A stretch of 64,000 bases of DNA. Source: a virus. Lineage: Duplodnaviria; Heunggongvirae; Uroviricota; Caudoviricetes. The stretch spans positions 1 to 64,000 of IMG/VR virus record IMGVR_UViG_3300015608_002795; one strand, written 5' to 3'. The notes below the pieces were generated by a model. The model searched no databases. It was not told where the DNA came from and saw nothing but the letters and a program-made list of their open reading frames with translations. The position numbers and the translations under genes are program-made. Of the stretch, positions 755 through 39,828 are shown in pieces (the first letter of the stretch is position 1; each line of letters starts with the position of its first letter).

Positions 755-1009
755 TTGTGGTGGAAAATTATTAAAAATATGAAGCATATAAAAACAAAAC
801 AGGAATTAGAAAAGGAATCACTTTTACTTTATGGTGGTAATAATAAACAAAATCCACCATTTAATGTAGGTGATAAACTAAAACAGATATGGAGAGTTGA
901 TGACGACAATAATCTTATAAAAGATGGTAGAGAAATGGTGGAGTTTGTTGGTATGAAAGGTGATATGATGTTATTGAAGCAAAACCGCAGATTCGGGTTC
1001 GAGTCCTGA
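755..1009 (+). CDS. hypothetical protein (84 aa); 3' end overlaps a tRNA-like T-arm fragment
   Basis: ORF preceded by TAtaTTTG promoter-like motif at 731-738; C-terminus encodes 'GGTTCGAGTCC'. Confidence 0.3.
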   Translation: MWWKIIKNMKHIKTKQELEKESLLLYGGNNKQNPPFNVGDKLKQIWRVDDDNNLIKDGREMVEFVGMKGDMMLLKQNRRFGFES

Positions 1010-1066
1010 CAAGCGTACAAATAGGAATACACCCAACAGGGAATTATAAATTTAATATATAATAAT

Positions 1067-1858
1067 ATGATAATTTATAGTTTATCCTCAAGTGAAGATC
1101 CTAATAATGTAAGGTATATAGGAAAAACAAATGATATTAAAAAAAGACTAAAAAGGCATCTTTCGAAATATAATTTGATTCCAGATACGCATAAAAATAG
1201 ATGGATAAAATCCGAAATATCAAAGGGAAATAAAATAATTATCACTGAGATATATCGAATAGTAGATGATGAAAAGTGGCAAGATGTTGAAATTTATTGG
1301 ATTGATAAATATAAAAAGGAAGGATATAAACTAACAAATTCAACAAATGGAGGAGACGGAGGTGTTTTCACAAAAGAGATGTTAGAAAAAAGAAGTGAAA
1401 GTATTAGAAATAAAAATATTAAAAATAAATTAGAGGAAATTGAAAAATATAAAATAAGAGAAATAGATAGTGTGTGGTATGGGGATAGAATTTGTATTTC
1501 GTGTAAGAAAACAATAACACATAAATCTAAAGGATTAAATCAGATTATTTATTTAATAAGGAAGTTGATAAATAAAAAATGTCTTAGTTGTAAATCATTT
1601 GATAGAAAACTTACAAGTGAAGAAAAAGAAAAAATATCTCTATCTAAAAAAAATATATCAGAGGAAACTAGAAAAAAATTGTCCATAATACATAAAGGTA
1701 AGTTTATATCAGAGGAAACTAAAAGAAAGATATCAAATTCATTAACTGGTAAAAAATTATCAGATGAAACTAGAAAAAAAATGTCAAATGCTAAAAAAAG
1801 AAAAAAATATAAAATACCTAGTGGGGATTCAGCCGACAGGGAAGCTAACAATAGGTAA
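1067..1858 (+). CDS. GIY-YIG family homing endonuclease
   Basis: N-terminal 'IIYSLSSSED..VRYIGKTNDIKKRLKRH' GIY-YIG motif; repeated NUMOD-like 'KKLSxETRKK' modules. Confidence 0.85.
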   Translation: MIIYSLSSSEDPNNVRYIGKTNDIKKRLKRHLSKYNLIPDTHKNRWIKSEISKGNKIIITEIYRIVDDEKWQDVEIYWIDKYKKEGYKLTNSTNGGDGGVFTKEMLEKRSESIRNKNIKNKLEEIEKYKIREIDSVWYGDRICISCKKTITHKSKGLNQIIYLIRKLINKKCLSCKSFDRKLTSEEKEKISLSKKNISEETRKKLSIIHKGKFISEETKRKISNSLTGKKLSDETRKKMSNAKKRKKYKIPSGDSADREANNR

Positions 1859-2531
1859 CTACCTAGGTTGTTTAAAGAAAGGCCTAAGGCTTCAAGAGGA
1901 AGGGCATGATGTTACCTTCTTGATAGCAAACTACCATTCTCTAACAACTGATAGTTATACTGATGTAACTGAACAGGAATTAATTAAATTAGGTTGTAAG
2001 AATATAAAAAGACAAACTCCTGAATATACTGAGTTGTTTTTCAAATTATGTTGTAAGCTAAACTTAGGAACATTACTGAAAATGCCTCAATATAAAGACA
2101 AAAAGGAAAATGTAGAATTTGACTTGGGATTGATGTTATATCCTGTATTAATGGCAGCTGATATCATCATTAACGACCCAGATGTAGTAATTGTTGGTAA
2201 AGACCAAATAGCTCACTTAGACCTATGTAATGATATTTCTAAGAGATTTAATGGTAAGTATTACAATTATGAATTAGGTGATGTAGATAAGATTATGTCA
2301 TTGATTGACCCAACAAAAAAGATGTCAAAATCTTTGGGAGAAAGACATGTTCTTTATATTTTTGATGAAAACTATGAAGCAAAAATAAAAAAGGCAAACG
2401 CCAACGAAGAAGGTCTCGAAAATCTTAAAAAGATTGGATTAGGAGTCGGAGTCGATGTTGATAAATATGAAATGAATTCTGATTTAAAGAAGGCTATTTC
2501 AGACAAAATGAATGAAATTTTTAACAAGTAA
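1764..2531 (+). CDS. truncated tryptophanyl-tRNA synthetase-like protein (HIGH motif degenerate as TIGN, KMSKS intact, no C-terminal anticodon-binding domain)
   Basis: 'GIQPTGKLTIGNYLG' aligns to the TrpRS 'GIQPSGxLHLGNYLG' signature; 'KMSKS' present; only ~70 aa after KMSKS; alternative start ATG at 1788. Confidence 0.7.
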   Translation: MKLEKKCQMLKKEKNIKYLVGIQPTGKLTIGNYLGCLKKGLRLQEEGHDVTFLIANYHSLTTDSYTDVTEQELIKLGCKNIKRQTPEYTELFFKLCCKLNLGTLLKMPQYKDKKENVEFDLGLMLYPVLMAADIIINDPDVVIVGKDQIAHLDLCNDISKRFNGKYYNYELGDVDKIMSLIDPTKKMSKSLGERHVLYIFDENYEAKIKKANANEEGLENLKKIGLGVGVDVDKYEMNSDLKKAISDKMNEIFNK

Positions 2532-2611
2532 TAAAATGACAACAATTAAAAACATAAAAAAATCTAAAAAACGAATAAAAATGATTCGATAGATAAGCTA
2601 TTGCCTTAACT

Positions 2612-2647
2612 AACCCGAATCATTGTAAATGGTTCGGGTTTTTTATT
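2612..2647 (+). terminator. intrinsic terminator (AACCCGAA..TTCGGGTT + T-run)
   Basis: perfect 8-bp stem followed by TTTTTTATTT directly after the TrpRS-like stop. Confidence 0.6.
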
Positions 2648-2652
2648 TATAC

Positions 2653-2744
2653 GCGTCGGTTCGCTTAGTTGGCCTAAAGCATCAGACTTTTAATCTGAAG
2701 AGATAATGTTCTCAACCGTGGGTTCGAATCCCACCCGGCGTACA
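2653..2744 (+). tRNA. tRNA, class-II architecture (long variable arm GAGA/TCTC), anticodon loop CTTTTAA (UUU), A73
   Basis: hand fold: acceptor GCGTCGG/CCGGCGT (2 GU), anticodon stem TCAGA/TCTGA, T-arm GTGGG-TTCGAAT-CCCAC. Confidence 0.5.
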
Positions 2745-2750
2745 AAAAAC

Positions 2751-2838
2751 TCCTTCGTATCCGTAGCTGGTCGAACGGTCCTGACTCTTAATCAGATGTG
2801 AGAAATCACCACCGTGGGTTCGAATCCCACCGAAGGAA
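2751..2838 (+). tRNA. tRNA, class-II architecture, anticodon loop CTCTTAA (CUU), A73
   Basis: acceptor TCCTTCG/CGAAGGA perfect; variable arm GTGA-GAAA-TCAC; T-arm GTGGG-TTCGAAT-CCCAC. Confidence 0.5.
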
Positions 2839-2842
2839 CTAA

Positions 2843-2915
2843 CCTCTTGTAGCAAACTGGCAGTAGGCAACGGTCTTTTAAACCGTGGGGCCGGGTTCGA
2901 TTCCCGGCGGGAGGA
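2843..2915 (+). tRNA. tRNA-Lys (UUU), canonical 73 nt
   Basis: acceptor CCTCTTG/CGGGAGG; anticodon stem ACGGT/ACCGT with loop CTTTTAA; T-arm CCGGG-TTCGATT-CCCGG. Confidence 0.65.
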
Positions 2916-2942
2916 CAAATTTTAACTCAATGGGTAGAGTAA

Positions 2943-3704
2943 ATGATTATATATATTATTATGAATAAGGAAACACTATTAAAATATATATCTGATAATT
3001 TGTCTACTCGTGAAATCGCCAAATATGAAGGGGTGACACAATCTAAAGTTAAATATTGGATAAAAAAATATGAAATAAAAACAAAATATTCGGCTTTTGG
3101 TAAGGGAATATCACCAAAAAGAGAAAAACAAGAATTTAATATAGAAGATATAGCTATAAAAAAAGATAGAGTATATAACTATTTATATGGACTATATTTA
3201 GGCGATGGATGCTTATATAAAAGAAAGGATAGAAATGTATCAACAATAACATTTTCTTTAGATAAAAAATATCCAAATATAATTAAGCAGTGTGAGTCGT
3301 ATTTACATGATTTATTTGGTAAATTTCCATATATTTATCATAGAAAAAATTCTAATTCCGTTGATGTGAAATATACATCTATTATAGTCGATAAACTTTT
3401 TTTAAAATACGGAAGTGGGAAAAAACACATGAATGGTATTTATTTACCTAAAATATTAGTAGATAATATTCACTACGATTGTTTATTAAAAGGGTTGTTC
3501 CATTCTGATGGTTCTTATTATTTTAATAATAGATCAGGCACTTATTGTTATAGTTTTACTAATAAAAGTATTGATATACTAAATATTTTTTCAAGATGTC
3601 TAAATTTTTATGATGTAAAGCATAGTTTATCAAAAGATCATATAATGATTCAATCGAATAAGGAAGTCAAAAAATTATATAAAATATTGGAACAAAAAAA
3701 TTAA
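2943..3704 (+). CDS. LAGLIDADG family homing endonuclease
   Basis: two LAGLIDADG motifs 'LYGLYLGDGC' and 'LKGLFHSDGS'; N-terminal HTH 'LSTREIAKYEGVTQSKVKYW'. Confidence 0.85.
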   Translation: MIIYIIMNKETLLKYISDNLSTREIAKYEGVTQSKVKYWIKKYEIKTKYSAFGKGISPKREKQEFNIEDIAIKKDRVYNYLYGLYLGDGCLYKRKDRNVSTITFSLDKKYPNIIKQCESYLHDLFGKFPYIYHRKNSNSVDVKYTSIIVDKLFLKYGSGKKHMNGIYLPKILVDNIHYDCLLKGLFHSDGSYYFNNRSGTYCYSFTNKSIDILNIFSRCLNFYDVKHSLSKDHIMIQSNKEVKKLYKILEQKN

Positions 3705-3709
3705 AAATT

Positions 3710-3946
3710 ATGGAAACGCTAACAACAATAAGAGAAAGATTAGAAACACATTATGAAGGTGTTTATAGAAAGATATGGGTTCAAGGCAGTGCTCGTCATG
3801 GTCAAAATGATATTTTATTAACTCTATTTCCTTCAAATAGTGACGGATACAAAATTGTATCTATGAGAAAGCTAAGAAATATTTCATTTGAAGAAGTGTT
3901 TACAGTACTACAAAGAGAATTAAGTATTACAAATATATTAGAGTAA
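3710..3946 (+). CDS. hypothetical protein (78 aa)
   Basis: intact ORF, tightly packed after the preceding gene. Confidence 0.4.
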   Translation: METLTTIRERLETHYEGVYRKIWVQGSARHGQNDILLTLFPSNSDGYKIVSMRKLRNISFEEVFTVLQRELSITNILE

Positions 3947-3961
3947 TTTAATATATAATGG

Positions 3962-4975
3962 ATGAGGTATATCAAAAAATATGAATCTTATAATAAACTT
4001 GATGAAATATTAGATATATTTATTGACTTTGAAGAAGAAGGATATGTAGTTAATAGTTTTGAGTTAAAAATAGTTGAGGATAGGGATGATTGGGGTGGAA
4101 ATTTTATATCCGAAAAGTTAAGACATGTTTATGGTAAAAAGTTTATAAACTATCATAAAGATGTAATTATGAGTAAAGGAGAAAAAACATATAAAGCTAA
4201 AGATGCTATTATTGTTAGAATATCAAAAACAAATTATATAAAAGATTTAACGGATAGAAAAATACATTGGAAAAAATTAGACTCTGAAATGTCTAAAAAA
4301 ACAGATGTTATAAAAAATAGATCTGAGTTTTTAAACTTAAGTTTATATGGGGTCATGGCTGAATGGTATCAACTTGGAAAGGCAGTACATGATGATTTTC
4401 GAGGTGAACCATATTTTGGATATGATGTTATTAATGATTGTTATACATTTGCATTTTATCCATCCGAAAAAGTACTTGAAAAATTTTATAATCCACCGTC
4501 TGAAATAAAAGAAAAATTACATTCTATTGTAAATGATCTATTATCTAAACACGAAGGTGGTAAGCCATTTTTTGACGCATTGGATGATGCTATTAAGGAT
4601 GTTTATAATGAAGATATGATTCTTGCTTTATTAAAGGGCAATTCAAATGAATGGATAGCAGCATCTGGTGGATTTGGAGATAGGGTCTATAACCTATGGA
4701 AAAGGGGAAAATTTAGGTGTAAAGGAATAGTTGTCTTCAATGGTAAAATGATGACAAATAAAACCGGAGTAAACAATTGGTATCCACCAGATTTCGATTT
4801 ATCAAACAAGGATTATGTATATGTAGATGATTCTTATTTTTCTGGTGGAACTGCAAGAAAAATAAATGGATTTTTATCTGAACACAATTCAAAAATTAAA
4901 CACGTATCTGTTATATATGATGGATCAAAGGAAAAAAGTAAACTAGTTAAATCATTTTTTAGATACTACAAATGA
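3962..4975 (+). CDS. phosphoribosyltransferase-fold protein (PRPP-binding motif)
   Basis: 'YVYVDDSYFSGGTARKI' matches the type-I PRTase / Prs PRPP-binding loop (hydrophobic-DD-x-x-TGGT). Confidence 0.5.
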   Translation: MRYIKKYESYNKLDEILDIFIDFEEEGYVVNSFELKIVEDRDDWGGNFISEKLRHVYGKKFINYHKDVIMSKGEKTYKAKDAIIVRISKTNYIKDLTDRKIHWKKLDSEMSKKTDVIKNRSEFLNLSLYGVMAEWYQLGKAVHDDFRGEPYFGYDVINDCYTFAFYPSEKVLEKFYNPPSEIKEKLHSIVNDLLSKHEGGKPFFDALDDAIKDVYNEDMILALLKGNSNEWIAASGGFGDRVYNLWKRGKFRCKGIVVFNGKMMTNKTGVNNWYPPDFDLSNKDYVYVDDSYFSGGTARKINGFLSEHNSKIKHVSVIYDGSKEKSKLVKSFFRYYK

Positions 4976-5024: not shown

Positions 5025-5309
5025 GTGATTTCTTTAAAGCATATGTCATCGCTTGATTTTAATGGAGAGCTTGGATCTATACATATAAAATTATTAGAGG
5101 ATGATGATACATATATTTTAATTTCACTAGGATATAATCATGATATGAAATTTGATATGATGACGTGGACAGATCTTGAAATATGTAAAAATGGAATTCG
5201 TGGGAAAGCATCATGGATGAGACAAGTGAGTCATGGATTAGAAGGATCTTTATTTGATAAAGTAGCAAATTATCTAACAGATAATGAATTAGTTGGCCCT
5301 ATTATTTAA
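5025..5309 (+). CDS. hypothetical protein (94 aa)
   Basis: intact ORF. Confidence 0.35.
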   Translation: MISLKHMSSLDFNGELGSIHIKLLEDDDTYILISLGYNHDMKFDMMTWTDLEICKNGIRGKASWMRQVSHGLEGSLFDKVANYLTDNELVGPII

Positions 5310-5894: not shown

Positions 5895-6467
5895 ATGAAA
5901 TACACAGTATATAAAATAACAAATTTAATAAACGGTAAAATTTATATCGGAGTTCATAAAACAGAAAATTTAGACGATGGATATATGGGATCTGGTAAAA
6001 ATATAAAAAGAGCTATTGACAAATATGGAATTCAAAATTTTAAAAAAGAATATATTAAAATATTTGACAATCAAGAAGATATGTTTAAAATGGAGTCTGA
6101 GTTGGTAAATGAATTATTTTTATCTAGTCGTGAGAATTATAATATAATGAAAGGAGGTCATGGAGGATTTGAACATATAAATAAAAATTGTTGGAATAAA
6201 GAAAGTAGAAAAAATCATCTACAAAAAATATATCATTTGGTTTCAGCTGAAAAAAGAAAGGATATCGGTGCATATATGGGTAAAAACTTTGGGGGTAGTA
6301 ATAGATTAAGAGAGGATGTAATAAATTATAGATTAAAAATACTCGAAACAGTTGATATGTCTAAATATGGTTGGGTAGAAAAAGCTAGTAAATTATTAAA
6401 TATAACACATACACAAGTTAGGAGATTTGTAAATAAATATTATAAAGGAGAATATTATAGAAGATAA
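5895..6467 (+). CDS. GIY-YIG family homing endonuclease
   Basis: 'KYTVYKITNLINGKIYIGVHKT..GYMGSGKNIKRAIDKYG' GIY-YIG core. Confidence 0.8.
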   Translation: MKYTVYKITNLINGKIYIGVHKTENLDDGYMGSGKNIKRAIDKYGIQNFKKEYIKIFDNQEDMFKMESELVNELFLSSRENYNIMKGGHGGFEHINKNCWNKESRKNHLQKIYHLVSAEKRKDIGAYMGKNFGGSNRLREDVINYRLKILETVDMSKYGWVEKASKLLNITHTQVRRFVNKYYKGEYYRR

Positions 6468-6660: not shown

Positions 6661-6858
6661 ATGATTTTAGAAGAAAATATAAATGGATTAGTTTTTGTTG
6701 AACAAAGGACTTTTTATATCTATAAATCAGAAGAAGATAGAAAAAAAGGAAACTATTCCTTCGTAACTTCTGATGAAAGTTTATTTTTAACTCACAAGGA
6801 AAATTTAAGAAATAAATTGTCAGTTATAAGGGATGAAAAGATAGATAAAGTTTTATGA
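6661..6858 (+). CDS. hypothetical protein (65 aa; track ORF 6487-6858 trimmed to the first ATG downstream of the tRNAs)
   Basis: upstream part of the track ORF is occupied by two tRNA genes. Confidence 0.35.
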   Translation: MILEENINGLVFVEQRTFYIYKSEEDRKKGNYSFVTSDESLFLTHKENLRNKLSVIRDEKIDKVL

Positions 6859-7145
6859 TAATAGGAAATTGTCCAATATGTGATAGAGAAATGTGGGATG
6901 ATAACTCATCTGACCGGCATCATTTTTATCCAAAATGCAAAGGCGGAAAAGAAACAGAATGGGTGCATAGAGTATGTCATAGAAAAATACATTCTATTTT
7001 TACTGAAAATGAGTTAGCTAAAACATATAATAATGCTGAGTTAATTAGAGAGCATCCCGAAATTATTAAATTCGTAAAATGGGTTTCTAAAAAAGAGCCT
7101 GATTTTTATGACAAAACTATAACACATAATAGAAAAAGGAGATAA
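6855..7145 (+). CDS. HNH endonuclease
   Basis: 'CPICDREM..DRHHFYPKCKGGKETEWVHRVCHRKIH' Zn-finger plus HNH signature. Confidence 0.8.
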   Translation: MIIGNCPICDREMWDDNSSDRHHFYPKCKGGKETEWVHRVCHRKIHSIFTENELAKTYNNAELIREHPEIIKFVKWVSKKEPDFYDKTITHNRKRR

Positions 7146-12470: not shown

Positions 12471-12666
12471 AGATACAAATTGGATGAATGATAAAATCCA
12501 AGATATAAAAAAGAGAAAAAGAAAGCTCGAATTACTTCAAGATCCTGAAATGAAAAAAAGAATAAAAAAGGACTTGAAACGTGAATATCGTTCTGTAAAA
12601 AGGGGAGAACGCAATCAAAATAATATATATATGAAAAAAGAAATTGATGAATTCTATAGAAAATAA
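12460..12666 (+). CDS. hypothetical basic protein (68 aa)
   Basis: Lys/Arg-rich ORF. Confidence 0.3.
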   Translation: MKVKDTNWMNDKIQDIKKRKRKLELLQDPEMKKRIKKDLKREYRSVKRGERNQNNIYMKKEIDEFYRK

Positions 12667-13366
12667 CTTTTATGTATATGTACATATAAACAAAAATACT
12701 GATTTGCCATTTTATGTAGGATTTGGCCGAAAAAATAGAATACTTGATAAAGGAAGAAGGAGTGCTGAATGGAACGATATTGTTAGTCAATATGGATATT
12801 ATTTTGGTACACTTAAACACAATATGACGAGAGAAGAAGCCAATTTATTTGAAAAGAAATGTATAAAATTTTTTATTGAAATTGGATTCAATCTTGTTAA
12901 TAAAATCAATGGTGGGAGTGGAAATTCTAAAAGAAAGCCATATAGTGAAGAATATAAAAAAATATTATCAGAAAGAGGGAAAAAATATTGGAAATCTTTA
13001 TCCAAAGAAGAAATTGATAAATTTTCACAAAAAATGTCATCTATATTAAAAGGTAAAAAGAAGCCAAAGAGAACAAAAGAGCATTGTAAAAATCTATCAA
13101 TATCACATAAAGGACAAAAAGCATGGAACAAAGGGTTGATACTAAATTATTCAGATGATATAAAATCAAGAATGTCTGATCATTCTAAAAAGAAAGTTAT
13201 AATATTCGACTTAAATGATAATAAAATTGGTGAATTTGATTCAATATCAAATGCAGCAAAAAAAATTGGACTGACCCCCAATAAGGTTAGTAAAATTCTA
13301 ACAGGAAGAATCAAAAAGAGTGAATATAAAATTTTTTATTTAAATGAATTTGGTGAACAAAAATGA
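12644..13366 (+). CDS. GIY-YIG homing endonuclease with NUMOD3 repeats
   Basis: 'NFYVYVHINKNTDLPFYVGFGRKNR..GRRSAEWNDIV' and 'KNLSISHKGQKAWNKG'. Confidence 0.8.
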   Translation: MMNSIENNFYVYVHINKNTDLPFYVGFGRKNRILDKGRRSAEWNDIVSQYGYYFGTLKHNMTREEANLFEKKCIKFFIEIGFNLVNKINGGSGNSKRKPYSEEYKKILSERGKKYWKSLSKEEIDKFSQKMSSILKGKKKPKRTKEHCKNLSISHKGQKAWNKGLILNYSDDIKSRMSDHSKKKVIIFDLNDNKIGEFDSISNAAKKIGLTPNKVSKILTGRIKKSEYKIFYLNEFGEQK

Positions 13367-21767: not shown

Positions 21768-21791
21768 CGCCGACAAAAATAATTTTTAGAA

Positions 21792-22277: not shown

Positions 22278-22339
22278 GTGCCTTCCAAGCATCGGATGTC
22301 GGTTCGATTCCGACTATTCGCTCAAAAAATAAAGTAAAA

Positions 22340-22546: not shown

Positions 22547-22695
22547 ATAAAATTGACTAAAATATGGGGGTTGGGACTGCAGCAGGAGTGGTCACTTGAC
22601 TTGCAATCAAGAAATCAGATGGTATCGTCCACCATAACCTCCACCATAGGGTCTGAGGGAGTCCCTTAAACGGATAAATAACGTGTCCCTCTCCA

Positions 22696-23544: not shown

Positions 23545-23610
23545 GGGGGATTAGCTCAGTTGGCTAGAGCACCTGCCTTGGGTCATCGGTTCGAATCCGA
23601 TATCCTCCAC
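23545..23610 (+). tRNA. truncated tRNA-Pro(UGG)-like gene (3' half of anticodon stem and variable loop missing)
   Basis: GGGGGAT-TA-GCTC-AGTTGGCTA-GAGC-A-CCTGC-CTTGGGT then directly T-arm CATCGG-TTCGAAT-CCGAT and ATCCTCC; 63 nt instead of about 73. Confidence 0.4.
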
Positions 23611-27342: not shown

Positions 27343-29274
27343 ATGAAAAAATCTATTTTATTGCTTTGCCTTCTTATTGGGGGCAAAGCTTTTTCACAAG
27401 AGAAAAGTGATACAGGTCAAATTACTCAACTTGATCGAGTAATTGTTATGGGAATTAGAGGTGATAAAAAAACACCAATAACACAAAAGACAATTTCAAA
27501 GAAAGAAATCACACAATTTTATCAAGGGCAGGAAATTCCAATACTGCTAGATAAAACTCCATCTATAACTTCTCAAACCGATGGAGGTCATACACAAGGA
27601 TATACCTATTTTCGAATTAGGGGAATTGATCAAACAAGAGTTAATATGACACTAAACGGAGTTCCTCTAAACGAACCAGAAGATCAAGGTGTTTATACCT
27701 CTAACTATCCAGGGTTCGCTAATGTAATTCAATCGGTTCAAGTTCAAAGGGGTGTAGGAACATCAAGTAATGGTGTTGCCTCATATGGTGGGTCAATTAG
27801 CTTTTTGAGTCAAAGTGGTATTAATAGGGGTTCTGAAATTGATTTAGGGTATGGATCGTTTAATACTAAACGACTTAACTACTCAAATAGTACAGGATTA
27901 AGTAGAAAAAACCTCTCCTTATTTACCAATTTATCATTATACTCAAGTGATGGATATAGGTATAATTCAGGGGGAAAAGGATATTCATTATTTATGAGCG
28001 GAGGTTACTACAAAGATCTTAATATACTTAAGTTTACAGCATTTACTGGTATGTCAACTAATCAAATGGCATGGCTTGCTGTTTCTGAAGATGATATTAA
28101 ATACGATAGAAAAACTAATTATAATAAAGGTGATGCTGATGATAAATTCAACCAAACTTTTGCTCAATTACAATGGACTAAAATTGTAAATAAAAATTCT
28201 AAATTTTCTTCTAATTTATTCTATAATAGGCTTGATGGCTCTTATGATTTACACTTCATATCACCGGGAACAAGAACTTTATTTTTATCATCTAATTTTT
28301 ATGGACTAGTTAGTAATTATTTATATCATAAAAATAGTGTTAAAATTAATATTGGTGCCAGTATATCTGGATATAATAGGAATCACAGCAATGACACTCT
28401 AGGGTACACAAATACTGGATATAAAAGTGAAATTAATATCTTCTCGAAGTTAAATTATGATATTCAAAAAGTAACATTTTTTGGAGACATTCAATATCGT
28501 TATACAGATTTTAAATATCATGGTGATGTTAAGTTAGATAGACTCAAATGGAATTTCTTCAATCCGAAGGCAGGTATTATTTATACAAAAAATAAATTTT
28601 TAAACTATTATTTTTCAGTGGGGACTACAAAAAGAGAGCCAACAAGAACTAACTTATTTAGTGGTGGTGATAATTTAATATCATTAAATAAGATTGATCC
28701 GGAGAAAGTTATTGATTATGAATTGGGTGTGAATTTCAAAGATGATAAATTATCTATTCAGGGCAATTTGTATTATATGAATTTTCGTAATGAAATTACT
28801 CCAATTGGGCCAATGGGTGCAAACAGTCTTCCACTAATGATTAATGTCGATAAGAGTCTTAGAAGTGGTGTGGAAGTTGATTTTACATATATATTTAATG
28901 ATCTTACATTTTATACGAATCTCAATATATCACATAATAAGGTAAATAATAAAGGAAGTGAATTCAAGCCACTCTATACGCCTAATTTTGTTATGAATCA
29001 ATCCATTACATTTAACTATAATCAACTATCATTTGGCATCAATAGTAAGTGCCAAGGAAAATCTTATATTAGTTTTGATAACAACTATTCAATACCATCA
29101 TTTATCATATTTGGTTTCAATATTAGTTACGAACAAAAATCATACACCTTTGTACTACAAGGAAATAATTTAACAGATAATAAATATTATACAAGCGGGT
29201 ATGTTGATTCGAGAGTTAGATATTATACAAATGCATTATCAAACTTTTATCTCACTATTAAAAAGAAATTTTAA
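27343..29274 (+). CDS. TonB-dependent-receptor-like outer-membrane beta-barrel protein (signal peptide, C-terminal Phe)
   Basis: 'MKKSILLLCLLIGGKAFSQ' signal peptide; plug-like N-terminal region; alternating beta-strand pattern with Tyr/Asn/Gly richness; terminal '..KKKF'. Confidence 0.6.
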   Translation: MKKSILLLCLLIGGKAFSQEKSDTGQITQLDRVIVMGIRGDKKTPITQKTISKKEITQFYQGQEIPILLDKTPSITSQTDGGHTQGYTYFRIRGIDQTRVNMTLNGVPLNEPEDQGVYTSNYPGFANVIQSVQVQRGVGTSSNGVASYGGSISFLSQSGINRGSEIDLGYGSFNTKRLNYSNSTGLSRKNLSLFTNLSLYSSDGYRYNSGGKGYSLFMSGGYYKDLNILKFTAFTGMSTNQMAWLAVSEDDIKYDRKTNYNKGDADDKFNQTFAQLQWTKIVNKNSKFSSNLFYNRLDGSYDLHFISPGTRTLFLSSNFYGLVSNYLYHKNSVKINIGASISGYNRNHSNDTLGYTNTGYKSEINIFSKLNYDIQKVTFFGDIQYRYTDFKYHGDVKLDRLKWNFFNPKAGIIYTKNKFLNYYFSVGTTKREPTRTNLFSGGDNLISLNKIDPEKVIDYELGVNFKDDKLSIQGNLYYMNFRNEITPIGPMGANSLPLMINVDKSLRSGVEVDFTYIFNDLTFYTNLNISHNKVNNKGSEFKPLYTPNFVMNQSITFNYNQLSFGINSKCQGKSYISFDNNYSIPSFIIFGFNISYEQKSYTFVLQGNNLTDNKYYTSGYVDSRVRYYTNALSNFYLTIKKKF

Positions 29275-30949: not shown

Positions 30950-31029
30950 GCTCCCGTAATCGAGTCTGCCTTCTAAGCAGTTAATCGTAACGGATATTGA
31001 AAATGAGGGTTCGAATCCCTCCGGGAGTT
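30950..31029 (+). tRNA. tRNA-like, D-arm apparently absent, UCU anticodon hairpin, long variable region
   Basis: acceptor GCTCCCG/CGGGAGT; anticodon stem TCTGC/GCAGT with loop CTTCTAA; T-arm GAGGG-TTCGAAT-CCCTC; only 8 nt between acceptor and anticodon stem. Confidence 0.35.
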
Positions 31030-31187
31030 CAAATATCGTCAAGATTCTATATCTATGAGAGTTTCTAGGACAATCATAAGATGAAATGGAAGAATTAAAA
31101 ACCACAGAATTTGATTTATAAATATTCTAGAAAGATTTATAAGTTGATGGTGGGTAGTAGGTTCGAATCCTACCTTGATGTCGAAAT

Positions 31188-31526: not shown

Positions 31527-31532
31527 CAAATT

Positions 31533-31618
31533 GGGAGATTAGCTCAGCTGGTCAGAGCAAGATCCTGTTAAGATCGAGGCGTGAATAACGATTTCATAGG
31601 TTCGAATCCTATCTCCCG
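31533..31618 (+). tRNA. tRNA, class-II architecture, anticodon loop CTGTTAA (GUU), G73
   Basis: acceptor GGGAGAT/ATCTCCC perfect; D-arm GCTC-AGCTGGTCA-GAGC; 19-nt variable arm (CGT/ACG stem); T-arm ATAGG-TTCGAAT-CCTAT. Confidence 0.5.
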
Positions 31619-31661
31619 CTTATTGAGTGATTTTCGAAAATTATATTTTAATATATAATTT

Positions 31662-32315
31662 ATGGAATCAAAATATATTTGTGAAGAATGTGGTAATGAA
31701 TTTTTTCCATTAAAAAGGAATGTTCAATACTCAAAGCTGAAAGGATTAAATAGAATAAGATTTTGTTCTAAACAATGCTCCGGTAGAAATTCTAAAAAAG
31801 AAATATTACTAGAGTGTGCAAATTGTGGGAAACAAGTCTATAAAAAAAGAAAAGAGAGAAAAAAGAGTAAAAGTGGAAATATTTTTTGTGGTAAGAGCTG
31901 TTCAGCATCTTTTAATAACAGAAATAAGTCTACTGGAACAAGAAGAAGTAAGTTAGAGTTATGGATAGAGAAAGAATTGAAAAGTGAATATAAATTTGAA
32001 ATTATTTTTAATGGAAAAGAAATCATAAATAGTGAATTAGACATTTATATACCAAGCTTAAAATTAGCATTTGAGTTAAATGGTATATTTCACTATGAAC
32101 CTATTTATGGAGAAGAAAAACTTAAAAATATTAAAAATAATGATGATAGAAAATTTCAAGCCTGCTTAGAGAAAAATATAGAACTTTGCATAATAGATAC
32201 GTCAGGTTCTAAAAACTTTAAGTCAGAAAGAGACAAAAAATATTTTAACATCATTAGTAATATAATAAATGCACGGATGGTTCGAGTGGTTGAAGACACT
32301 AGTCTGCAAAACTAG
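31662..32315 (+). CDS. DUF559 / very-short-patch-repair-like endonuclease with N-terminal zinc ribbons (homing-endonuclease-like)
   Basis: 'CEECGNEF..CSKQCSG' and 'CANCGKQV..CGKSC' Zn ribbons; C-terminal 'IYIPSLKLAFELNG..EKNIELCIID' PD-(D/E)xK-like core; 3' end overlaps the next tRNA by about 45 nt. Confidence 0.5.
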   Translation: MESKYICEECGNEFFPLKRNVQYSKLKGLNRIRFCSKQCSGRNSKKEILLECANCGKQVYKKRKERKKSKSGNIFCGKSCSASFNNRNKSTGTRRSKLELWIEKELKSEYKFEIIFNGKEIINSELDIYIPSLKLAFELNGIFHYEPIYGEEKLKNIKNNDDRKFQACLEKNIELCIIDTSGSKNFKSERDKKYFNIISNIINARMVRVVEDTSLQN

Positions 32316-32357
32316 AAGCCGTAAGGTTCATCGTGAGTTCAAATCTCACTCCGTGCT
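32271..32357 (+). tRNA. tRNA with GCA (Cys) anticodon and 17-nt variable arm
   Basis: acceptor GCACGGA/TCCGTGC perfect; anticodon stem CTAGT/ACTAG with loop CTGCAAA; T-arm GTGAG-TTCAAAT-CTCAC. Confidence 0.55.
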
Positions 32358-32362
32358 CATAA

Positions 32363-32448
32363 TGTCTCGTAGCTCAGTGGTTTAAGAGCACCGCCCTTAC
32401 AAGGCGGAGGCGAATAGGATACCGTCAGTTCGATTCTGACCGAGACAA
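32363..32448 (+). tRNA. tRNA-Val (UAC) with 16-nt variable region
   Basis: acceptor TGTCTCG/CGAGACA perfect; anticodon stem CCGCC/GGCGG with loop CTTACAA; T-arm GTCAG-TTCGATT-CTGAC. Confidence 0.6.
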
Positions 32449-32456
32449 CAAAAAAT

Positions 32457-32541
32457 GCCTGGTTCGCATAGTGGACGATTGCACCTGCCTTGTAAGCAGG
32501 ATCTTAAAAAGGCGACGGGGGTTCGAATCCCTCACCAGGCT
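32457..32541 (+). tRNA. tRNA-Thr (UGU) with 16-nt variable region
   Basis: acceptor GCCTGGT/ACCAGGC perfect; anticodon stem CCTGC/GCAGG with loop CTTGTAA; T-arm GGGGG-TTCGAAT-CCCTC. Confidence 0.6.
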
Positions 32542-32585
32542 CAAAGTAGGAAGGCTCATATTTTTAATATATAAAAATAAAAACT

Positions 32586-33254
32586 ATGAGAATTTCAAAA
32601 GAAATATTAATTGAACTAGTTAATAGAGGACTATCAAATAAAAAAATATCAGAGGAATTAAATGTTTCTAGATCAACTATTGTTAGAGAAAAGTCTAAAT
32701 ATAATTTGAATTCAAAGTATTATGAAATTAAAAGTGAAATTAAAAAATGTGAGTTTTGTAATGAAGAATTTAAATCAATAAAGAGTGATAATAGAAAATT
32801 TTGTTCAAGGGAATGCTCTATTAATAGTCAGAAAAAGTCAAATGAATTAAAAATATGTGAGTTTTGTAATGAAGAATTTATAATAAGTGGGAGAAACATA
32901 TCAAAAAATAGAAAATTTTGCTCAACTGATTGTCATAAAAAGTATGTAGAAGATTCAAGATTTAAAAAATTAGAATATAACGGTGGAGTAAGTAACAAGA
33001 CAGCTAGGTTGTACCTAATAAAAAAATTTGGTGAAAAATGTATGAATTGTGGATGGGATAAGAAGAATACAGTTAGTGGAAAATGTCCGATAGAACTAGA
33101 ACATATAGACGGTAACTCAGAAAATAACAACTTAGATAATTTAAAATTACTTTGTCCAAATTGTCACTCATTAACACCAACATATAAATCTTTGAATAAG
33201 GGAAAAGGAAGACATAAAAGAAGAGAAAGGTATAAAGAAGGTAGAAGTTATTAA
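32586..33254 (+). CDS. HNH homing endonuclease (HTH + Cys-rich + HNH), paralogue of 22819-23463
   Basis: 'LEHIDGNSENNNLDNLKLLCPNCHSLTPTYKSLNKGKGR'. Confidence 0.8.
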   Translation: MRISKEILIELVNRGLSNKKISEELNVSRSTIVREKSKYNLNSKYYEIKSEIKKCEFCNEEFKSIKSDNRKFCSRECSINSQKKSNELKICEFCNEEFIISGRNISKNRKFCSTDCHKKYVEDSRFKKLEYNGGVSNKTARLYLIKKFGEKCMNCGWDKKNTVSGKCPIELEHIDGNSENNNLDNLKLLCPNCHSLTPTYKSLNKGKGRHKRRERYKEGRSY

Positions 33255-33378: not shown

Positions 33379-33451
33379 GTGGGAGTAGCTCAGTTGGTAA
33401 GAGCACCTGCATCGAGGCAGGCGGTCGGTGGTTCAAGTCCATCCTCCCATA
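33379..33451 (+). tRNA. tRNA with 6-nt anticodon loop ATCGAG (Arg UCG-like, one nt short)
   Basis: acceptor GTGGGAG/CTCCCAT; canonical D-arm GCTC-AGTTGGTAA-GAGC; anticodon stem CCTGC/GCAGG perfect but loop only 6 nt; T-arm GGTGG-TTCAAGT-CCATC. Confidence 0.45.
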
Positions 33452-33495
33452 CAAATCTTTAGTCTGATCAACTATTGACTGGATGGTTCGAAACA
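33452..33495 (+). ncRNA. tRNA top-half minihelix (acceptor-like stem TGATCAA/TTGATTA + T-arm GGATG-GTTCGAAA-CATCC)
   Basis: about 43-nt element with a T-loop consensus and a 7-bp terminal stem but no D or anticodon arm. Confidence 0.3.
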
Positions 33496-33858: not shown

Positions 33859-33992
33859 TTGTATTATGGCGAAGCTGGGATTGATTTCGGGTAAACTCCA
33901 AAATCTTCTACTCAAGAACGAAAACCGCCATCCTGATGTACGAGGTAGATAGTATAAGGGATCATAGGTTCGAGTCCTATTAATACAAACAT
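33859..33992 (+). tRNA. tRNA-like with about 60-nt internal insertion (acceptor TGTATTA .. T-arm ATAGG-TTCGAGT-CCTAT .. TAATACA)
   Basis: perfect 7-bp terminal complementarity and canonical T-arm, but 134 nt end to end. Confidence 0.25.
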
Positions 33993-33994
33993 TA

Positions 33995-34070
33995 TGGCAT
34001 GGCTTAGAGGAAAAGAGCGGTCTCTCATAAGGACTGTCAAGTGGGTTCGAACCCCACGCATGCTACTAAT
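33995..34070 (+). tRNA. tRNA (CAU anticodon hairpin GGTCT-CTCATAA-GGACT); acceptor pairing imperfect
   Basis: T-arm GTGGG-TTCGAAC-CCCAC; D-stem GCT/AGC. Confidence 0.35.
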
Positions 34071-34130: not shown

Positions 34131-34733
34131 ATGTGTAATTATGGATGGAGTAACGGATTAGACTCCGCAAATGACAATAGAATTAGAAGTAAATATAAAT
34201 ATATAGCACTTTGTGAAAATTCAAATATTCACAGAGGAGTTTTAAGAAATAAAATAATTAAAGAGGGATTAATATTATATAAATGTTCAGAATGTGGAAT
34301 TACCAATGAATGGAATGGGAAAAAAATAATTTTAGAACTGGATCATATAAGCGGTGATAGTACTGATAATAGAATTGAAAATTTAAGATTTTTGTGTCCA
34401 AATTGTCATTCTCAAACACCAACATTTAAAGGTAGAAATAAACCGAAGTCAGAAAAAGAAATAAAAATAAGAAAAGAAAAGAAAAAAAAGGAGAGGAGAA
34501 AAAAAATAAAAAATAAAAAATGCAATAATTGTAGTAAAATGTGTAGCTTTAATGCGGATGTTTGTAGGGACTGTTACAAAATATTACAAAGAAAATATGA
34601 TAGACCAGATGATCAAATATTATTAAGACAGGTTAAAGAATTTGGATATACAAAAACATCAAAAATATATGGAGTTTCTGATAAAACTATTAAAAAATGG
34701 TTTGAGGATTTATCGGATACACCGAAAGATTAA
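34131..34733 (+). CDS. HNH homing endonuclease (track ORF 34041 trimmed to the ATG downstream of the tRNA)
   Basis: 'CSECGITNEWNGKKIILELDHISGDSTDNRIENLRFLCPNCHSQTPTF'; C-terminal HTH-like 'YGVSDKTIKKWF'. Confidence 0.75.
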   Translation: MCNYGWSNGLDSANDNRIRSKYKYIALCENSNIHRGVLRNKIIKEGLILYKCSECGITNEWNGKKIILELDHISGDSTDNRIENLRFLCPNCHSQTPTFKGRNKPKSEKEIKIRKEKKKKERRKKIKNKKCNNCSKMCSFNADVCRDCYKILQRKYDRPDDQILLRQVKEFGYTKTSKIYGVSDKTIKKWFEDLSDTPKD

Positions 34734-35658: not shown

Positions 35659-35683
35659 TTGTATAATTAATATATATATTTTA

Positions 35684-36094
35684 ATGGTAAAGAAGTACTA
35701 CGAATATTATAAATCATCATTTATTCAAATATCTAATAATGATTATCGTTCTCTAATGGGTGAAACTAACGAGTATGGATATCTTATTAATCTAAATAGG
35801 ATTTCAAATTTTGATGAAAGAGATACTATACTGATAAAATCATTAGGATTTGATATTGCTTTTTCTGATATCGATAGTCAAAAAAGCAACTACCGTAAAT
35901 CATCTATACTTTTTAAAAAGGGTGAGGTTGTTCCGACACTTATAATAACTAAAATCGAGGATGAATATTTTATCGTAAATGTTATATTGAAAAATGATAA
36001 AAAAAGATCTTATTTTGATCCAGCATATATAAATGAATATTATAAGTGCGACCAAATAGATGGATTAATATCCTGTTTAAAAGATATTTTATGA
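35684..36094 (+). CDS. hypothetical protein (136 aa)
   Basis: intact ORF. Confidence 0.45.
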   Translation: MVKKYYEYYKSSFIQISNNDYRSLMGETNEYGYLINLNRISNFDERDTILIKSLGFDIAFSDIDSQKSNYRKSSILFKKGEVVPTLIITKIEDEYFIVNVILKNDKKRSYFDPAYINEYYKCDQIDGLISCLKDIL

Positions 36095-36957: not shown

Positions 36958-36961
36958 ATCT

Positions 36962-37420: not shown

Positions 37421-37422
37421 TT

Positions 37423-37588: not shown

Positions 37589-38758
37589 ATGAAAATTGAT
37601 ATAAACAAAATAAAAATAACACCAGAAAAACTTGGATTTAATTTCTGCCAATTTGGTGAATTAACAGAAGAAGTAAAATCTTGGGTTGATTTTTGGAAAT
37701 TTAAAACAGAAAAATCAGGACCATTTACTAACATAATAGTTGGTGATATAGATTTTGAATTAATATTCAATGAATCAGTCAGTTACGACTATGTAGATGG
37801 ATTTAGTCCTAACCTAAATAAACATCTTCATGTTGGACATTTATCAAATCTTGTTATTGCAAATGCAATGCAGAAATTGGGAATAGGAAAAGAGTTCATT
37901 GCAATATTAGGTGATACCTTAGATGGTGAGGTAAATAAGTCAGATGCACTTTCATCATACCAAAAATATTGTCAAGAATTCAATTATAAAGTAGATAAAA
38001 TTTTTTACGCTTCTGACATGAAATTAAAGGATGATATTTTAAAAGAGGGAGAAGGTGACTACTTAGGATCAAAAGTATTTGATTTAGGTGATGAAAAAAT
38101 AGTTGGAATAAAGAGTTCTGGATTAACATCTTACTTTTATCAAGATGTTGCCTTAGCTCAACACTTAAATTCATCGACTCTTTATCTGACTGGTTTTGAA
38201 CAGGATAATCACTTCAAATCATTAAAGAAGCTATTTCCATCGACAAACCATATAGGTTTAGGATTAGTTCTTCTAAATGGTAAGAAAATGTCAAGTAGTG
38301 AAGGTAATATCATTCTATTAAAAGATTTTATAAACCAACTATTAGAAATGTTTAATGATATAAAATTGGTTTATAATATTTTAGCTGGTCAAATTTTAAA
38401 ATCAGCACCAGGTAGTAGTAAATCAATTGATATGAAACTAATTAGTAATCCTAAATTATCACTTGGGTTATATTTAAGTTACACTATGGCACATATTAAA
38501 AGTTGTGGAGTAGAAACAAAAAAAATTAAAAATTATGTATCAGAGGAATTACAATTTGCAGAACTAAAATCAAAAGTAAATTTAAGTCCTAATTTATTAT
38601 TTGAATCTCTAGTAAAACACTGTAAGTCAATTAATAAGTTATATGAGACACATTATATAAAAAACAACAAAGAAAATATAGAACTTTTCTCTACACTAAT
38701 CTCTGATTTAGAGTTAGGAATGAGTAAATTAGGTATGTTTTCCATTGATAAAGTATAA
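37589..38758 (+). CDS. class-I aminoacyl-tRNA-synthetase-like catalytic core (ArgRS-like: 'LHVGHLSN' HIGH and 'KMSSS'), no anticodon-binding domain
   Basis: 'FSPNLNKHLHVGHLSNLVIANAMQKLG' resembles the ArgRS/CysRS HIGH region; 'KMSSSEGN' is KMSKS-like; 389 aa versus more than 550 aa for a full ArgRS. Confidence 0.55.
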   Translation: MKIDINKIKITPEKLGFNFCQFGELTEEVKSWVDFWKFKTEKSGPFTNIIVGDIDFELIFNESVSYDYVDGFSPNLNKHLHVGHLSNLVIANAMQKLGIGKEFIAILGDTLDGEVNKSDALSSYQKYCQEFNYKVDKIFYASDMKLKDDILKEGEGDYLGSKVFDLGDEKIVGIKSSGLTSYFYQDVALAQHLNSSTLYLTGFEQDNHFKSLKKLFPSTNHIGLGLVLLNGKKMSSSEGNIILLKDFINQLLEMFNDIKLVYNILAGQILKSAPGSSKSIDMKLISNPKLSLGLYLSYTMAHIKSCGVETKKIKNYVSEELQFAELKSKVNLSPNLLFESLVKHCKSINKLYETHYIKNNKENIELFSTLISDLELGMSKLGMFSIDKV

Positions 38759-38847
38759 AAATTAAAATTATGAAAGGTTGGATAAAGTCAATAAGACAAT
38801 CAAAAGGATCGTAACTTAACGGAAAAATCACAAAAAATCTAACTATT

Positions 38848-38922
38848 GATAAATATCACTGTAGTTCAACTGAATAGAATTGAGGTTTCCTAAACTTCGG
38901 ATGTGGGTTTGATTCCCACCAG
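38848..38922 (+). tRNA. tRNA-like (acceptor ATCACTG/CAGTGAT perfect, T-arm GTGGG-TTTGATT-CCCAC, aberrant anticodon region)
   Basis: lies at the 3' end of the minus-strand HNH gene. Confidence 0.3.
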
Positions 38923-39630
38923 TGATTCATAATATTTAATCCATTTCCTTATGGAGTTATCACTAACCCCATATTTTCTACCCGTGCCACAGTACCCTAA
39001 TCTTTTCACATCATCTAATATTACATCATAATTTGGCCTTTTTACTTTTCTTGTTTGTGATTTATCTTGTTTATTAAAACATTTTAAGCACATTTTAGAG
39101 TGTTTTAATATTTTCATACCACAAACACAATATGTATTTTTTTTATTTAATTTATTAAATAAATATTCATCATAATCAAAATCAAAAATATTTAAATTCT
39201 CCTTATTTATATTTTCTATTATTGTTTTTATGATGTCTTTATTAAAGCAAACAGAAAAATGTATTTCGTATAATTTCCAGTTTGATTTTTCTATTATATC
39301 ATGCCTATTTTGATAATAGGCTTTCAAATTACCATTTTTTTCATAATGTTGGTTACCATTTATTTCTATTCCAACTTTTTTATTAGGAAAGGCAATATCT
39401 ATTGAAAAATGTCTATCAGTAAGTGGTGTAAATTCTTCAACATATAAAATATTCATTTCATATAGAGCTTCTTTGAATTTATTACAAGGTATTGATTTGA
39501 ATTTTTCTTTTGATTTCCAGTTATGTTTGTCGGGGTTATTTTTATAAAATTCTTTTCTTGAGTTTGATATTTTTAATTTTGTAGATTCTGATATTTTTTT
39601 ACCACGCTTTGTTAGTCCAATATTTCCCAA
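38890..39630 (-). CDS. HNH-family homing endonuclease-like protein; separate HTH mini-ORF upstream in another frame (39639-39719, minus strand)
   Basis: C-terminal HTH 'YGVSDNSIRKWIKYY' as in the 34131 HNH; the upstream 26-codon ORF 'MNEIVIKLRKSGKSIREIAIDIGVFA' is an HTH. Confidence 0.6.
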   Translation of the reverse strand: MGNIGLTKRGKKISESTKLKISNSRKEFYKNNPDKHNWKSKEKFKSIPCNKFKEALYEMNILYVEEFTPLTDRHFSIDIAFPNKKVGIEINGNQHYEKNGNLKAYYQNRHDIIEKSNWKLYEIHFSVCFNKDIIKTIIENINKENLNIFDFDYDEYLFNKLNKKNTYCVCGMKILKHSKMCLKCFNKQDKSQTRKVKRPNYDVILDDVKRLGYCGTGRKYGVSDNSIRKWIKYYESLVGIKPTSEV

Positions 39631-39828
39631 TCCATTTTCTACGCAAATACTCCTATATCAATGGCAATTTCACGAATAGACTTCCCACTTTTTCTCAATT
39701 TAATTACGATTTCATTCATGTATTATATATTAAATATTCGAACCTACATATATGATTTTTTTATATACTAATTAAGGTATGTTCGAATCACTCCGGGACT
39801 TCTTAAAAAATTTTTAATATATACTCCT

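Follow-up and report, generated by a model that had tools for sequence, protein, structure and literature searches.

The 64,000-nucleotide stretch analysed here (the window) comprises positions 1 to 64,000 of the IMG/VR virus record IMGVR_UViG_3300015608_002795. It contains a phage region of tRNA and aminoacyl-tRNA-synthetase genes that has very probably been colonised by free-standing homing endonuclease genes (HEGs) of four or five nuclease superfamilies and is subject to homing-driven exchange and decay. Judged from the alleles compared, HEG turnover remodels the tRNA arrays. This reading is carried by the identity of the HEGs, their adjacency to tRNA genes, their presence, absence and swapping at the same sites, tracts of single-nucleotide polymorphisms (SNPs) in the flanks, pseudogenising deletions, and two altered tRNA genes. 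An original prediction, made from the letters of the window, had proposed a region saturated with HEGs, with disrupted tRNA genes and with HNH genes split between reading frames; that observation is partly confirmed and its interpretation is partly supported. The window has a G+C content of ~30% and ~47 tRNA genes, all on the plus strand. Truncated aminoacyl-tRNA-synthetase-like genes are present as well, along with genes for RNA ligases and for a TonB-dependent receptor.

By homology and gene order, the source of the window is a huge phage of the Mahaphage clade. A megablast search of 17-40 kb against INPHARED returned tRNA-sized matches only, and a close cultured relative was not found. The 757-aa (amino acid) protein encoded at 40862-43135 on the minus strand shares 55% identity across 97% of its length with LR756502, and 51% with LR745206. 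Both are 'uncultured phage' genomes of the Mahaphage clade (642 kb and 635 kb, respectively), with Bacteroidetes as predicted hosts (Al-Shayeb et al. 2020, PMC7162821). LR756502 is syntenic with the window in its tRNA arrays and in a gene resembling tryptophanyl-tRNA synthetase (TrpRS). The word 'homing' is absent from the main text of Al-Shayeb et al. 2020 (PMC7162821). Over 40 metagenomic contigs, drawn from independent samples, align with parts of the window. Most are ~99-100% identical over the aligned segments, and together they provide a population-level view of the region; where they have to be told apart, they are denoted by L and a number.

Pfam and PHROGs scans and paralogue searches support 14 HEG-type genes in 1-40 kb, and the ~17 first proposed is an over-count. 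Together they total 8.9 kb, or 22% of the first 40 kb. The proposed three GIY-YIG genes and one LAGLIDADG gene stand, whereas the roughly twelve HNH genes come down to eight of HNH/EndoVII type, and PD-(D/E)xK genes number two and not one. A recognised nuclease domain is backed by Pfam, PHROGs or homology for 12 of the 14, whereas 6855-7145 and 31662-32315 have motif or weak matches only. Open reading frames (ORFs) of the set, some with a helix-turn-helix (HTH), are as follows.

1067-1858 (ORF; cassette 1042-1747), plus strand: GIY-YIG and NUMOD3 HEG (Pfam GIY-YIG, NUMOD3)
2943-3704, plus strand: LAGLIDADG HEG (Pfam LAGLIDADG_3)
5895-6467, plus strand: SegB-like GIY-YIG HEG between tRNA-Arg(tcg) and tRNA-Ser(gga) (PHROG 314, E = 2e-37)
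6855-7145, plus strand: small HNH-motif protein, the weakest HEG call (motif and weak match, no Pfam or PHROG match)
12644-13366, plus strand: HEG with GIY-YIG motif and NUMOD1 (Pfam NUMOD1, I-HmuI NUMOD-like; GIY motif by eye only)
17778-18497, plus strand: double-HNH HEG with tRNA-Met 24 bp downstream (PHROG HNH families, E = 3e-28, two matched stretches)
19745-20160, plus strand: HTH-HNH HEG, split (HNH superfamily)
21792-22277, plus strand: EndoVII/HNH-type HEG between Ile(tat)-like and Gly(tcc)-like tRNAs (PHROG 'endonuclease VII', E = 2e-26)
22819-23463, plus strand: HTH-HNH HEG (Pfam HNH; phmmer paralogue links)
25845-26564, plus strand: NUMOD3-HNH HEG, 121 bp downstream of tRNA-Gly(tcc) (Pfam NUMOD3, HNH)
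31662-32315, plus strand: HEG with zinc finger (TRASH-like) and PD-(D/E)xK motif (PHROG homing-endonuclease families)
32586-33254, plus strand: HTH-HNH HEG between tRNA-Thr and tRNA-Val (Pfam HTH families, weak HNH match; paralogue of 22819)
34131-34733, plus strand: HNH HEG with C-terminal HTH, 4 bp upstream of tRNA-Leu(caa) (Pfam HNH)
38890-39719, minus strand: DUF559-type PD-(D/E)xK HEG, split (homology to the DUF559 HEG of L036)

The product of 5895-6467 is 41% identical across 95% of its length (E = 1e-33) to a HEG of Tequatrovirus phiC600P9 that lies between tRNA-Gly and tRNA-Ser, a position in the tRNA cluster which we take to be that of segB. Its Pfam GIY-YIG and SegE_GIY-YIG scores fall just under the cut-offs. 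The 6855-7145 product weakly matches (E = 2e-4) residues 501-548 of a 562-aa group II intron maturase/reverse transcriptase chain in PDB, and has orthologues in L027 and L058 (67-79% identity). The minus-strand gene 38890-39719 had been taken for an HNH gene; it is assigned to the DUF559-type PD-(D/E)xK group because its product is 33% identical (E = 2e-28) to a 314-aa L036 protein having DUF559/MTES_1575/RAP Pfam matches. The 31662-32315 product matches that DUF559-type protein at the catalytic motif only, and PDB sequence searches with the two PD-(D/E)xK candidates gave no helpful match. By phmmer, the genes at 19921, 22819, 32586, and 34131 form a four-member HNH paralogue family. A six-frame search with every HEG family found no additional copies, and no HEGs were found at 40-64 kb of the window. 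The HEG ORFs are intergenic and not embedded in an intron or intein; among the Rfam group I and group II intron families, none reached threshold. The product of the minus-strand gene 16379-16999 is no HEG but a secreted non-specific nuclease of the Endonuclease_NS family with an apparent signal peptide.

That the HEGs mostly abut tRNA clusters, as first proposed, holds: 12 of the 14 lie within 250 bp of a tRNA, compared with 11 of 72 other genes (Fisher p = 6e-7), and a thirteenth is 48 bp from a tRNA remnant. The cassettes lie 0-120 bp from a tRNA gene, and several ORFs enter the neighbouring gene up to the first stop codon. ORF 1067-1858 extends 95 nt into the TrpRS-like gene, 31662-32315 overlaps tRNA-Cys by 45 nt, and the 3' end of 38890-39719 reaches antisense into tRNA-Arg. 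Each of the four HTH-HNH paralogues lies 44-66 bp downstream of a different tRNA. By analogy, cleavage of HEG-less alleles probably takes place within tRNA sequence or close to it. The main rival explanation, which is possible though doubtful, holds that the arrays, being dispensable and rich in spacers, are a permissive landing pad for HEGs of any specificity, with tRNA sequence not being the target. Four or five unrelated nuclease families do use the same sites, and small unknown ORFs also stand in the arrays. However, the enrichment near tRNAs is very strong, and the common offset of the four HNH paralogues from four tRNAs fits a tRNA-linked target. Moreover, SegB, a homologue of the 5895-6467 product, recognises a 27-bp site with a tRNA T-arm motif (the T-psi-C stem-loop) and drives the inheritance of surrounding tRNA genes (PMC2330249).

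Turnover that involves tRNA genes is seen at the tRNA-Lys site, the stretch between the TrpRS-like gene and gene 3710-3946, in strains ~99% identical over the aligned flanks. The LAGLIDADG allele has the following trio.

2653-2916, plus strand: three tRNA-Lys genes, two of 91 nt and 89 nt with long variable arms and one of 74 nt (ARAGORN, Rfam)

The window, L037, and L040 have two long-arm tRNA-Lys genes, one 74-nt tRNA-Lys gene, and the LAGLIDADG gene. L036 has three tRNA-Lys genes of normal length (72-74 nt) and a DUF559-type HEG, L038 has three of that same length and no HEG, and L024 has four tRNA-Lys genes with a NUMOD4/HNH_3-like ORF upstream of the array (motifs by eye). The comparison of HEG flanks with HEG-free alleles, which had been suggested as a check, thus finds empty, LAGLIDADG, and DUF559 alleles at one site, and the HEG allele and the tRNA-Lys content co-vary. 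In L036, the DUF559 HEG forms a clean insertion of 966 bp located 1 nt after tRNA-Lys(ctt). Three L024 tRNA-Lys genes are replaced by the LAGLIDADG cassette, and the LAGLIDADG stop codon falls within the last ~6 nt of the L024-equivalent tRNA-Lys(ctt). Against L038 and L036, ~30 SNPs are found in 3689-3999 and ~10 in 2600-2656, with ~zero over the next 4-11 kb; the clusters extend for ~300 bp on the right side of the variable cassette and for ~50 bp on its left side. The restriction of the SNP clusters to the flanks and the differing tRNA-Lys content together form the pattern expected from homing with co-conversion.

The array positions of HEGs also differ across L013, L022, L024, L025, L026, and L056. 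HEGs of the same families are present at other array positions in L013, L025, L026, and L056, the homologue of 31662-32315 having a different position in L013, and L022 differs upstream of 19484 in its set of tRNAs and in having one more GIY-YIG gene, on the minus strand. The 34131 HEG is absent directly upstream of tRNA-Leu(caa) in L013 and L058, where the preceding tRNA-Leu is 76-100 bp away, and no homologue of 21792-22277 exists between the orthologous tRNAs of L056 and L058. In LR756502, the syntenic 40 kb has only ~4 HEGs by homology. The Ile(tat) and Gly(tcc) genes there have a normal length (72-74 nt) and no HEG between them, and no homologue of 12644-13366 was detected between its orthologues of g12460 and g13611. 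The protein of 20211-20939 was used to seek viral relatives and none were found. L011 and L012, which were found via the protein resembling arginyl-tRNA synthetase (ArgRS), are not syntenic and have no tRNAs nearby.

Five tRNA fragments had been proposed at HEG borders. Two of them are altered tRNAs, two are full-length genes, and one is not tRNA-like.

980-1018, plus strand: 5'-truncated tRNA-Trp(cca), from mid-anticodon to the 3' end (homology to the L024 tRNA)
22240-22322, plus strand: full-length tRNA-Gly(tcc)-like gene with an 11-nt D-loop insertion (Rfam 45.8 bits)
23545-23609, plus strand: internally deleted tRNA-Pro(tgg), 65 nt (Rfam alignment: 7 nt against 15 model positions)
38855-38928, plus strand: intact tRNA-Arg(cct) (ARAGORN; Rfam 50.4 bits)
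39733-39800, no strand assigned: intergenic 8-bp inverted repeat (ATTCGAAC / GTTCGAAT) built on a TTCGAA palindrome

Rfam at E <= 10 gave no match at 985-1015 or 39733-39800, so the fragments were assessed by homology instead. The segment 980-1018 matches positions 34-72 of an intact tRNA-Trp(cca) at 39 of 39 positions. That tRNA (L024 5844-5915) lies directly upstream of the orthologous TrpRS-like gene, whose protein is 98% identical. With an intact homologue at the same locus, the element predicted at 985-1015 is a tRNA remnant and not a chance T-loop motif. Identity ends mid-anticodon, and a 5' half that has diverged and not been replaced was rejected, the alignment score upstream of 980 being equal to the shuffle mean. 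Sequence comparison thus identifies 980-1018 as a genuine 5'-truncated tRNA-Trp, the only one of the five that combines homology to an intact tRNA of the same locus with a sharp breakpoint. The internal deletion of the tRNA-Pro at 23545 is likewise borne out, by the Rfam alignment and by the missing cloverleaf fold: the gene, aligned also to other tRNA-Pro genes, lacks the 3' strand of the anticodon stem and the variable loop.

The supposed fragment at 22286-22314 is the 3' part of the full-length tRNA-Gly(tcc)-like gene, which overlaps the 3' end of the 21792-22277 HEG by 38 nt. Compared with the tRNA-Gly at 5986-6058 of L056, this gene has the 11-nt D-loop insertion and anticodon-stem changes that preserve pairing, and it folds as a cloverleaf with an extended D-arm. 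The one at 38848-38922 turns out to be the intact tRNA-Arg(cct). At 39733-39800, the resemblance to tRNA is limited to two GTTCGAAT motifs, with no T-stem, no cloverleaf, no match in the tRNA library, and a fold z-score of -0.8. A structured T-arm scan found 49 on the plus strand and 0 on the minus strand, with 0.5 expected by chance. Seven of the 49 lie outside called tRNAs, and for most of these a 5' acceptor strand that matches is present at an unusual spacing (70-145 nt), which points to many non-canonical tRNA-like genes and not to many fragments.

The 706-bp GIY-YIG cassette (1042-1747), which in the window follows the truncated tRNA-Trp, is missing in L024 from the interval that separates tRNA-Trp from the start of the TrpRS-like gene; its insertion point is 26 bp after tRNA-Trp. 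Insertion points that are intergenic, both here and 1 nt after tRNA-Lys, would suit arrays that merely tolerate HEGs. For the region upstream of the tRNA-Trp breakpoint, an exact look-up of the protein of ORF 776-1009 returned no record; the contigs having the GIY-YIG gene are short, and several stop near window position 839. The proposal that endonuclease invasion remodels the tRNA array is upheld by the swaps of HEG and tRNA-Lys alleles. HEG insertion is, however, no simple explanation for the truncation of tRNA-Trp.

Several points weigh against the homing reading of the region. L024 still has the final NUMOD3 repeat of the GIY-YIG gene next to its intact tRNA-Trp; its 'empty' allele is thus probably a case of HEG loss, and the tRNA-Trp truncation is probably an event or rearrangement separate from HEG arrival. 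The HEG 12644-13366 is ~5 kb from the nearest tRNA, and the tRNA array at 45.7-47.1 kb has no HEG, so proximity to tRNAs is neither necessary nor sufficient; these two cases also favour a permissive array. The original prediction tied tRNA oddities to HEG borders, but by our own tally non-canonical tRNAs are about equally frequent at HEG borders (~41%) and elsewhere (~37%), and an enrichment at the borders was rejected. Aberrant tRNAs are present in the HEG-free array as well. The assignment of 6855-7145 and 31662-32315 as HEGs is at the level of motifs. The cleavage specificity of the enzymes, and any causal link from cutting to the tRNA truncations, are inferences.

The two frame splits proposed, at 19745-20160 and at 39719-38890 on the minus strand, are present as described. 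In 19745-20160, 7 bp (GATATCT) are deleted after 19933. An intact 143-aa HTH-HNH allele is found in L015 and L022, and the deletion is common to seven contigs (L014, L016, L017, L019-L021, and L023). L056, a relative of ~80% identity, has an intact HNH orthologue at the same position. In 38890-39719, 22 bp are deleted after 39650. An intact 283-aa allele is found in L001, L005, L006, and L010, and L002 has the 22 bp with no gene call. The 22-bp deletion is common to L004, L007, L008, and L009, and L003 has an assembly gap exactly there. Among contigs aligning to the window at >=97% identity, small indels of at least 3 bp occur at six positions only, and these deletions are two of them. Each split or intact allele was recovered from several independent samples, in which the presence of one deletion is independent of that of the other.

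The idea that both split genes use programmed -1 ribosomal frameshifting to fuse HTH and nuclease domain has almost no probability left. Both splits do require a -1 shift, and in each the N-terminal HTH is parted from the nuclease domain. However, the shared slippery heptamer that had been suggested is present in neither overlap: no X XXY YYZ sequence occurs in 19921-19936 or in 39657-39639 on the minus strand. The two-frame layout is not conserved, with single-frame alleles in L015, L022, and L056 for one gene and in L001, L005, L006, and L010 for the other, so relative to other samples and a more distant relative the splits are 7-bp and 22-bp deletions. Intact genes in other samples imply simple mutation, and together with the missing slippery site they indicate decay and not programmed frameshifting. 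Of the two outcomes first offered, recent decay therefore stands and frameshift-controlled expression does not. On these comparisons, the split genes represent the decay of fixed selfish genes.

The proposed mechanism is as follows. During co-infection by related phages, the nuclease would cut a HEG-less allele, probably at or near a conserved tRNA sequence, in the manner of T4 SegB at the T-arm. Repair would then copy the HEG plus the flanking tRNA genes. Arrays would become mosaic, cassettes would be swapped, and now and then a tRNA gene would be truncated or lost. Once fixed, a HEG would no longer be under selection and would degenerate; the 7-bp and 22-bp deletion alleles still segregate alongside intact alleles in natural populations.

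It is unlikely that the HEGs are partly domesticated, either to exclude co-infecting relatives or to amplify tRNA genes against tRNA-cleaving host defences, as with SegB in T6. SegB drives tRNA-Tyr amplification against Septu; across phages, homologues of segB occur in association with tRNAs (p = 1.4e-50) and are able to amplify tRNA segments (PMC13096335). Many isoacceptors of the window are present in tandem copies (Lys, Glu, and Tyr, for instance, with three each), and the small HNH gene at 6855 is conserved at 67-79% in distant relatives. In contrast, frameshifting deletions at high frequency remove two HEGs, HEG content turns over among close strains, and the most duplicated array (six tRNA-Gln) has no HEG.

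The expression of the HEGs may depend on a motif, TTAATATATA, which occurs 19 times in the window compared with 2.2 expected; most sites precede a start codon by 5-30 bp. The motif is probably a phage promoter or an initiation-region element, and is found at the following positions.

1052, 3948, 5867, 10011 (minus), 17720 (minus), 19718, 20952, 22797, 25815, 30563: TTAATATATA sites
31648, 32564, 34099, 35667, 39724 (minus), 39814, 43113 (minus), 47364 (minus), 47799: remaining TTAATATATA sites

It precedes 9 of the 14 HEGs and ordinary genes too, and the HEGs thus look like self-contained cassettes on the promoter-like signal of the phage.

Other features of the region were also recorded. Long tRNAs of 83-94 nt have Lys, Glu, Asn, Cys, Val, Thr, Asp, and Gln anticodons, and Trp, His, Ile, and Pro ones too in relatives.

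2653-2743, 2751-2839, 19153-19239, 31532-31619, 32271-32358, 32363-32449, 32457-32542, 46362-46446, 46818-46900, plus strand: long tRNAs

Long tRNAs are also present in L013, L024-L028, L032-L034, L054, L056, and L058. In most, the extra length is a predicted class-II-type variable arm with a 3-5 bp stem and often a GAAA-like tetraloop, and most lie beside or near a normal-length isoacceptor of the same array. The stems vary in sequence between relatives with pairing kept, and the feature is clade-wide, including LR756502. A literature search for long-variable-arm forms of such tRNAs found no description. These tRNAs may have an altered charging identity, or may resist or decoy host tRNA nucleases.

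Standard callers miss several tRNA-like elements, all on the plus strand and inside arrays; these are listed first, followed by a separate tRNA-Ile(tat)-like gene.

31037-31181, 33860-33988, 30950-31029, 33996-34065, 45967-46041, ~22567-22650, plus strand: tRNA-like elements missed by callers
21693-21773, plus strand: tRNA-Ile(tat)-like gene without D-arm and with a 22-nt variable region (Rfam 41 bits, alignment)

The missed elements have a canonical T-arm and a matching 7-bp acceptor stem, and are 129-145 nt long or have odd cores. One missed element is Cys(gca)-like, with a T-loop that is non-canonical and a CCA end that is encoded (by eye). In 21693-21773, the 22-nt 'variable' region resembles displaced D-arm sequence (GTAGCGGGAAATGGAAGAC); its orthologues in L055, L056, and L058 are 74-75 nt (ARAGORN). 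The elements at 33379-33452 and 46157-46230 are high-scoring tRNAs (Rfam 56 and 43 bits, respectively) for which ARAGORN gives a 2-nt anticodon ('???'), which implies that the size of their anticodon loops is non-standard; a comparable Lys-like tRNA is present in L025.

Among the protein genes, the synthetase-like set is short.

1764-2531, 23695-24486, 24470-25190, 37589-38758: short aminoacyl-tRNA-synthetase-like genes

The set includes a TrpRS-like catalytic core (255 aa), whose gene adjoins the tRNA-Trp remnant, and an N-terminal fragment of alanyl-tRNA synthetase. A class II synthetase fragment is encoded as two ORFs, which are separate in L055 and L056 too. The ArgRS-like protein has weak Pfam support, and its gene adjoins tRNA-Arg(cct). 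The TonB-dependent receptor (27343-29274) has Plug and beta-barrel regions and an N-terminal signal peptide by eye, 39829-40428 encodes a C39 peptidase, and 40486-40851 on the minus strand encodes a YoeB-family toxin. A 12-bp or 15-bp insertion inside gene 35684-36094 (35894/35895) is present in L002 and L010, with an assembly gap there in L003. L002 and L004 have a 7-bp deletion at 45831, just upstream of a weak tRNA at 45851-45921. In L037, L040, L041, and L044, from four different samples, a ~158-bp segment (5099-5256, within ORF 5025-5309) is inverted, with small junction deletions. No convincing inverted repeats were found flanking it, and an obvious switch was rejected because the inverted allele has a broken ORF.

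A more speculative and quite improbable idea is that HEG cassettes are vehicles that move structurally non-canonical tRNAs between huge phages, as a diversification-and-exchange engine for a translation or anti-defence toolkit. If this were true, the cargo would be the long-variable-arm Lys, Glu, Asn, Cys, Val, Thr, Asp, and Gln tRNAs together with the tRNAs having D-loop insertions, and an example role would be to withstand host defences that cleave tRNA or to serve as decoys for them. The LAGLIDADG allele, in which a pair of long-arm tRNA-Lys genes replaces normal-length ones, would then be a transfer caught in a natural population. The window reveals no new kind of system, and the more unusual material is the tRNAs themselves. 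The paired alleles with and without each HEG are ready substrates for mapping new endonuclease specificities. A caution also follows for such regions, where a 'fragment' or a 'frameshift' is in many cases a non-canonical tRNA or an ordinary deletion that segregates.

Among known systems, the large lytic phage T5 has the HNH endonucleases F-TflI, II, and IV in its tRNA region. T5 and the window, likened here by description and not by sequence, both have several HNH-type site-specific nucleases among tRNA genes, but the HEGs of T5 are far fewer and of one family. A cyclical life history of HEGs, from invasion through fixation and degeneration to loss, was reportedly described by Goddard and Burt in 1999 for an intron-encoded HEG of yeast mitochondria. 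As in that cycle, empty, occupied, swapped, and frameshifted alleles co-occur in one population here, in HEGs that are, unlike theirs, intron-less and phage-borne. The window thus gives a natural-population snapshot of every stage of the HEG life cycle: empty site, invasion, cassette swap, and frameshift decay.

In other phages, HEG islands lie at the boundaries of genetic exchange (Barth, Dunham and Seed 2023, PMC10448857). As in those islands, the HEGs of the window flank cargo, homology is mosaic and polar, and there are no discrete element ends. In contrast to them, the cargo here is tRNA genes, some of them non-canonical, and not core life-cycle genes, and it is seen in metagenomic populations only. 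The arrangement as such is already known from SegB of phage T4. In T4 and T6, as in the window, a free-standing GIY-YIG HEG lies between tRNA genes, and the flanking tRNAs differ between HEG-bearing and HEG-less phages. Unlike T4 and T6, the window has 14 HEGs of four or five superfamilies and not one, in a Mahaphage background with a predicted Bacteroidetes host. The window is thus an unusually dense, multi-family, and population-resolved example. It carries the SegB-type association of HEGs with tRNA genes beyond T4-like phages into the Mahaphage clade, with four or five nuclease families involved at once.

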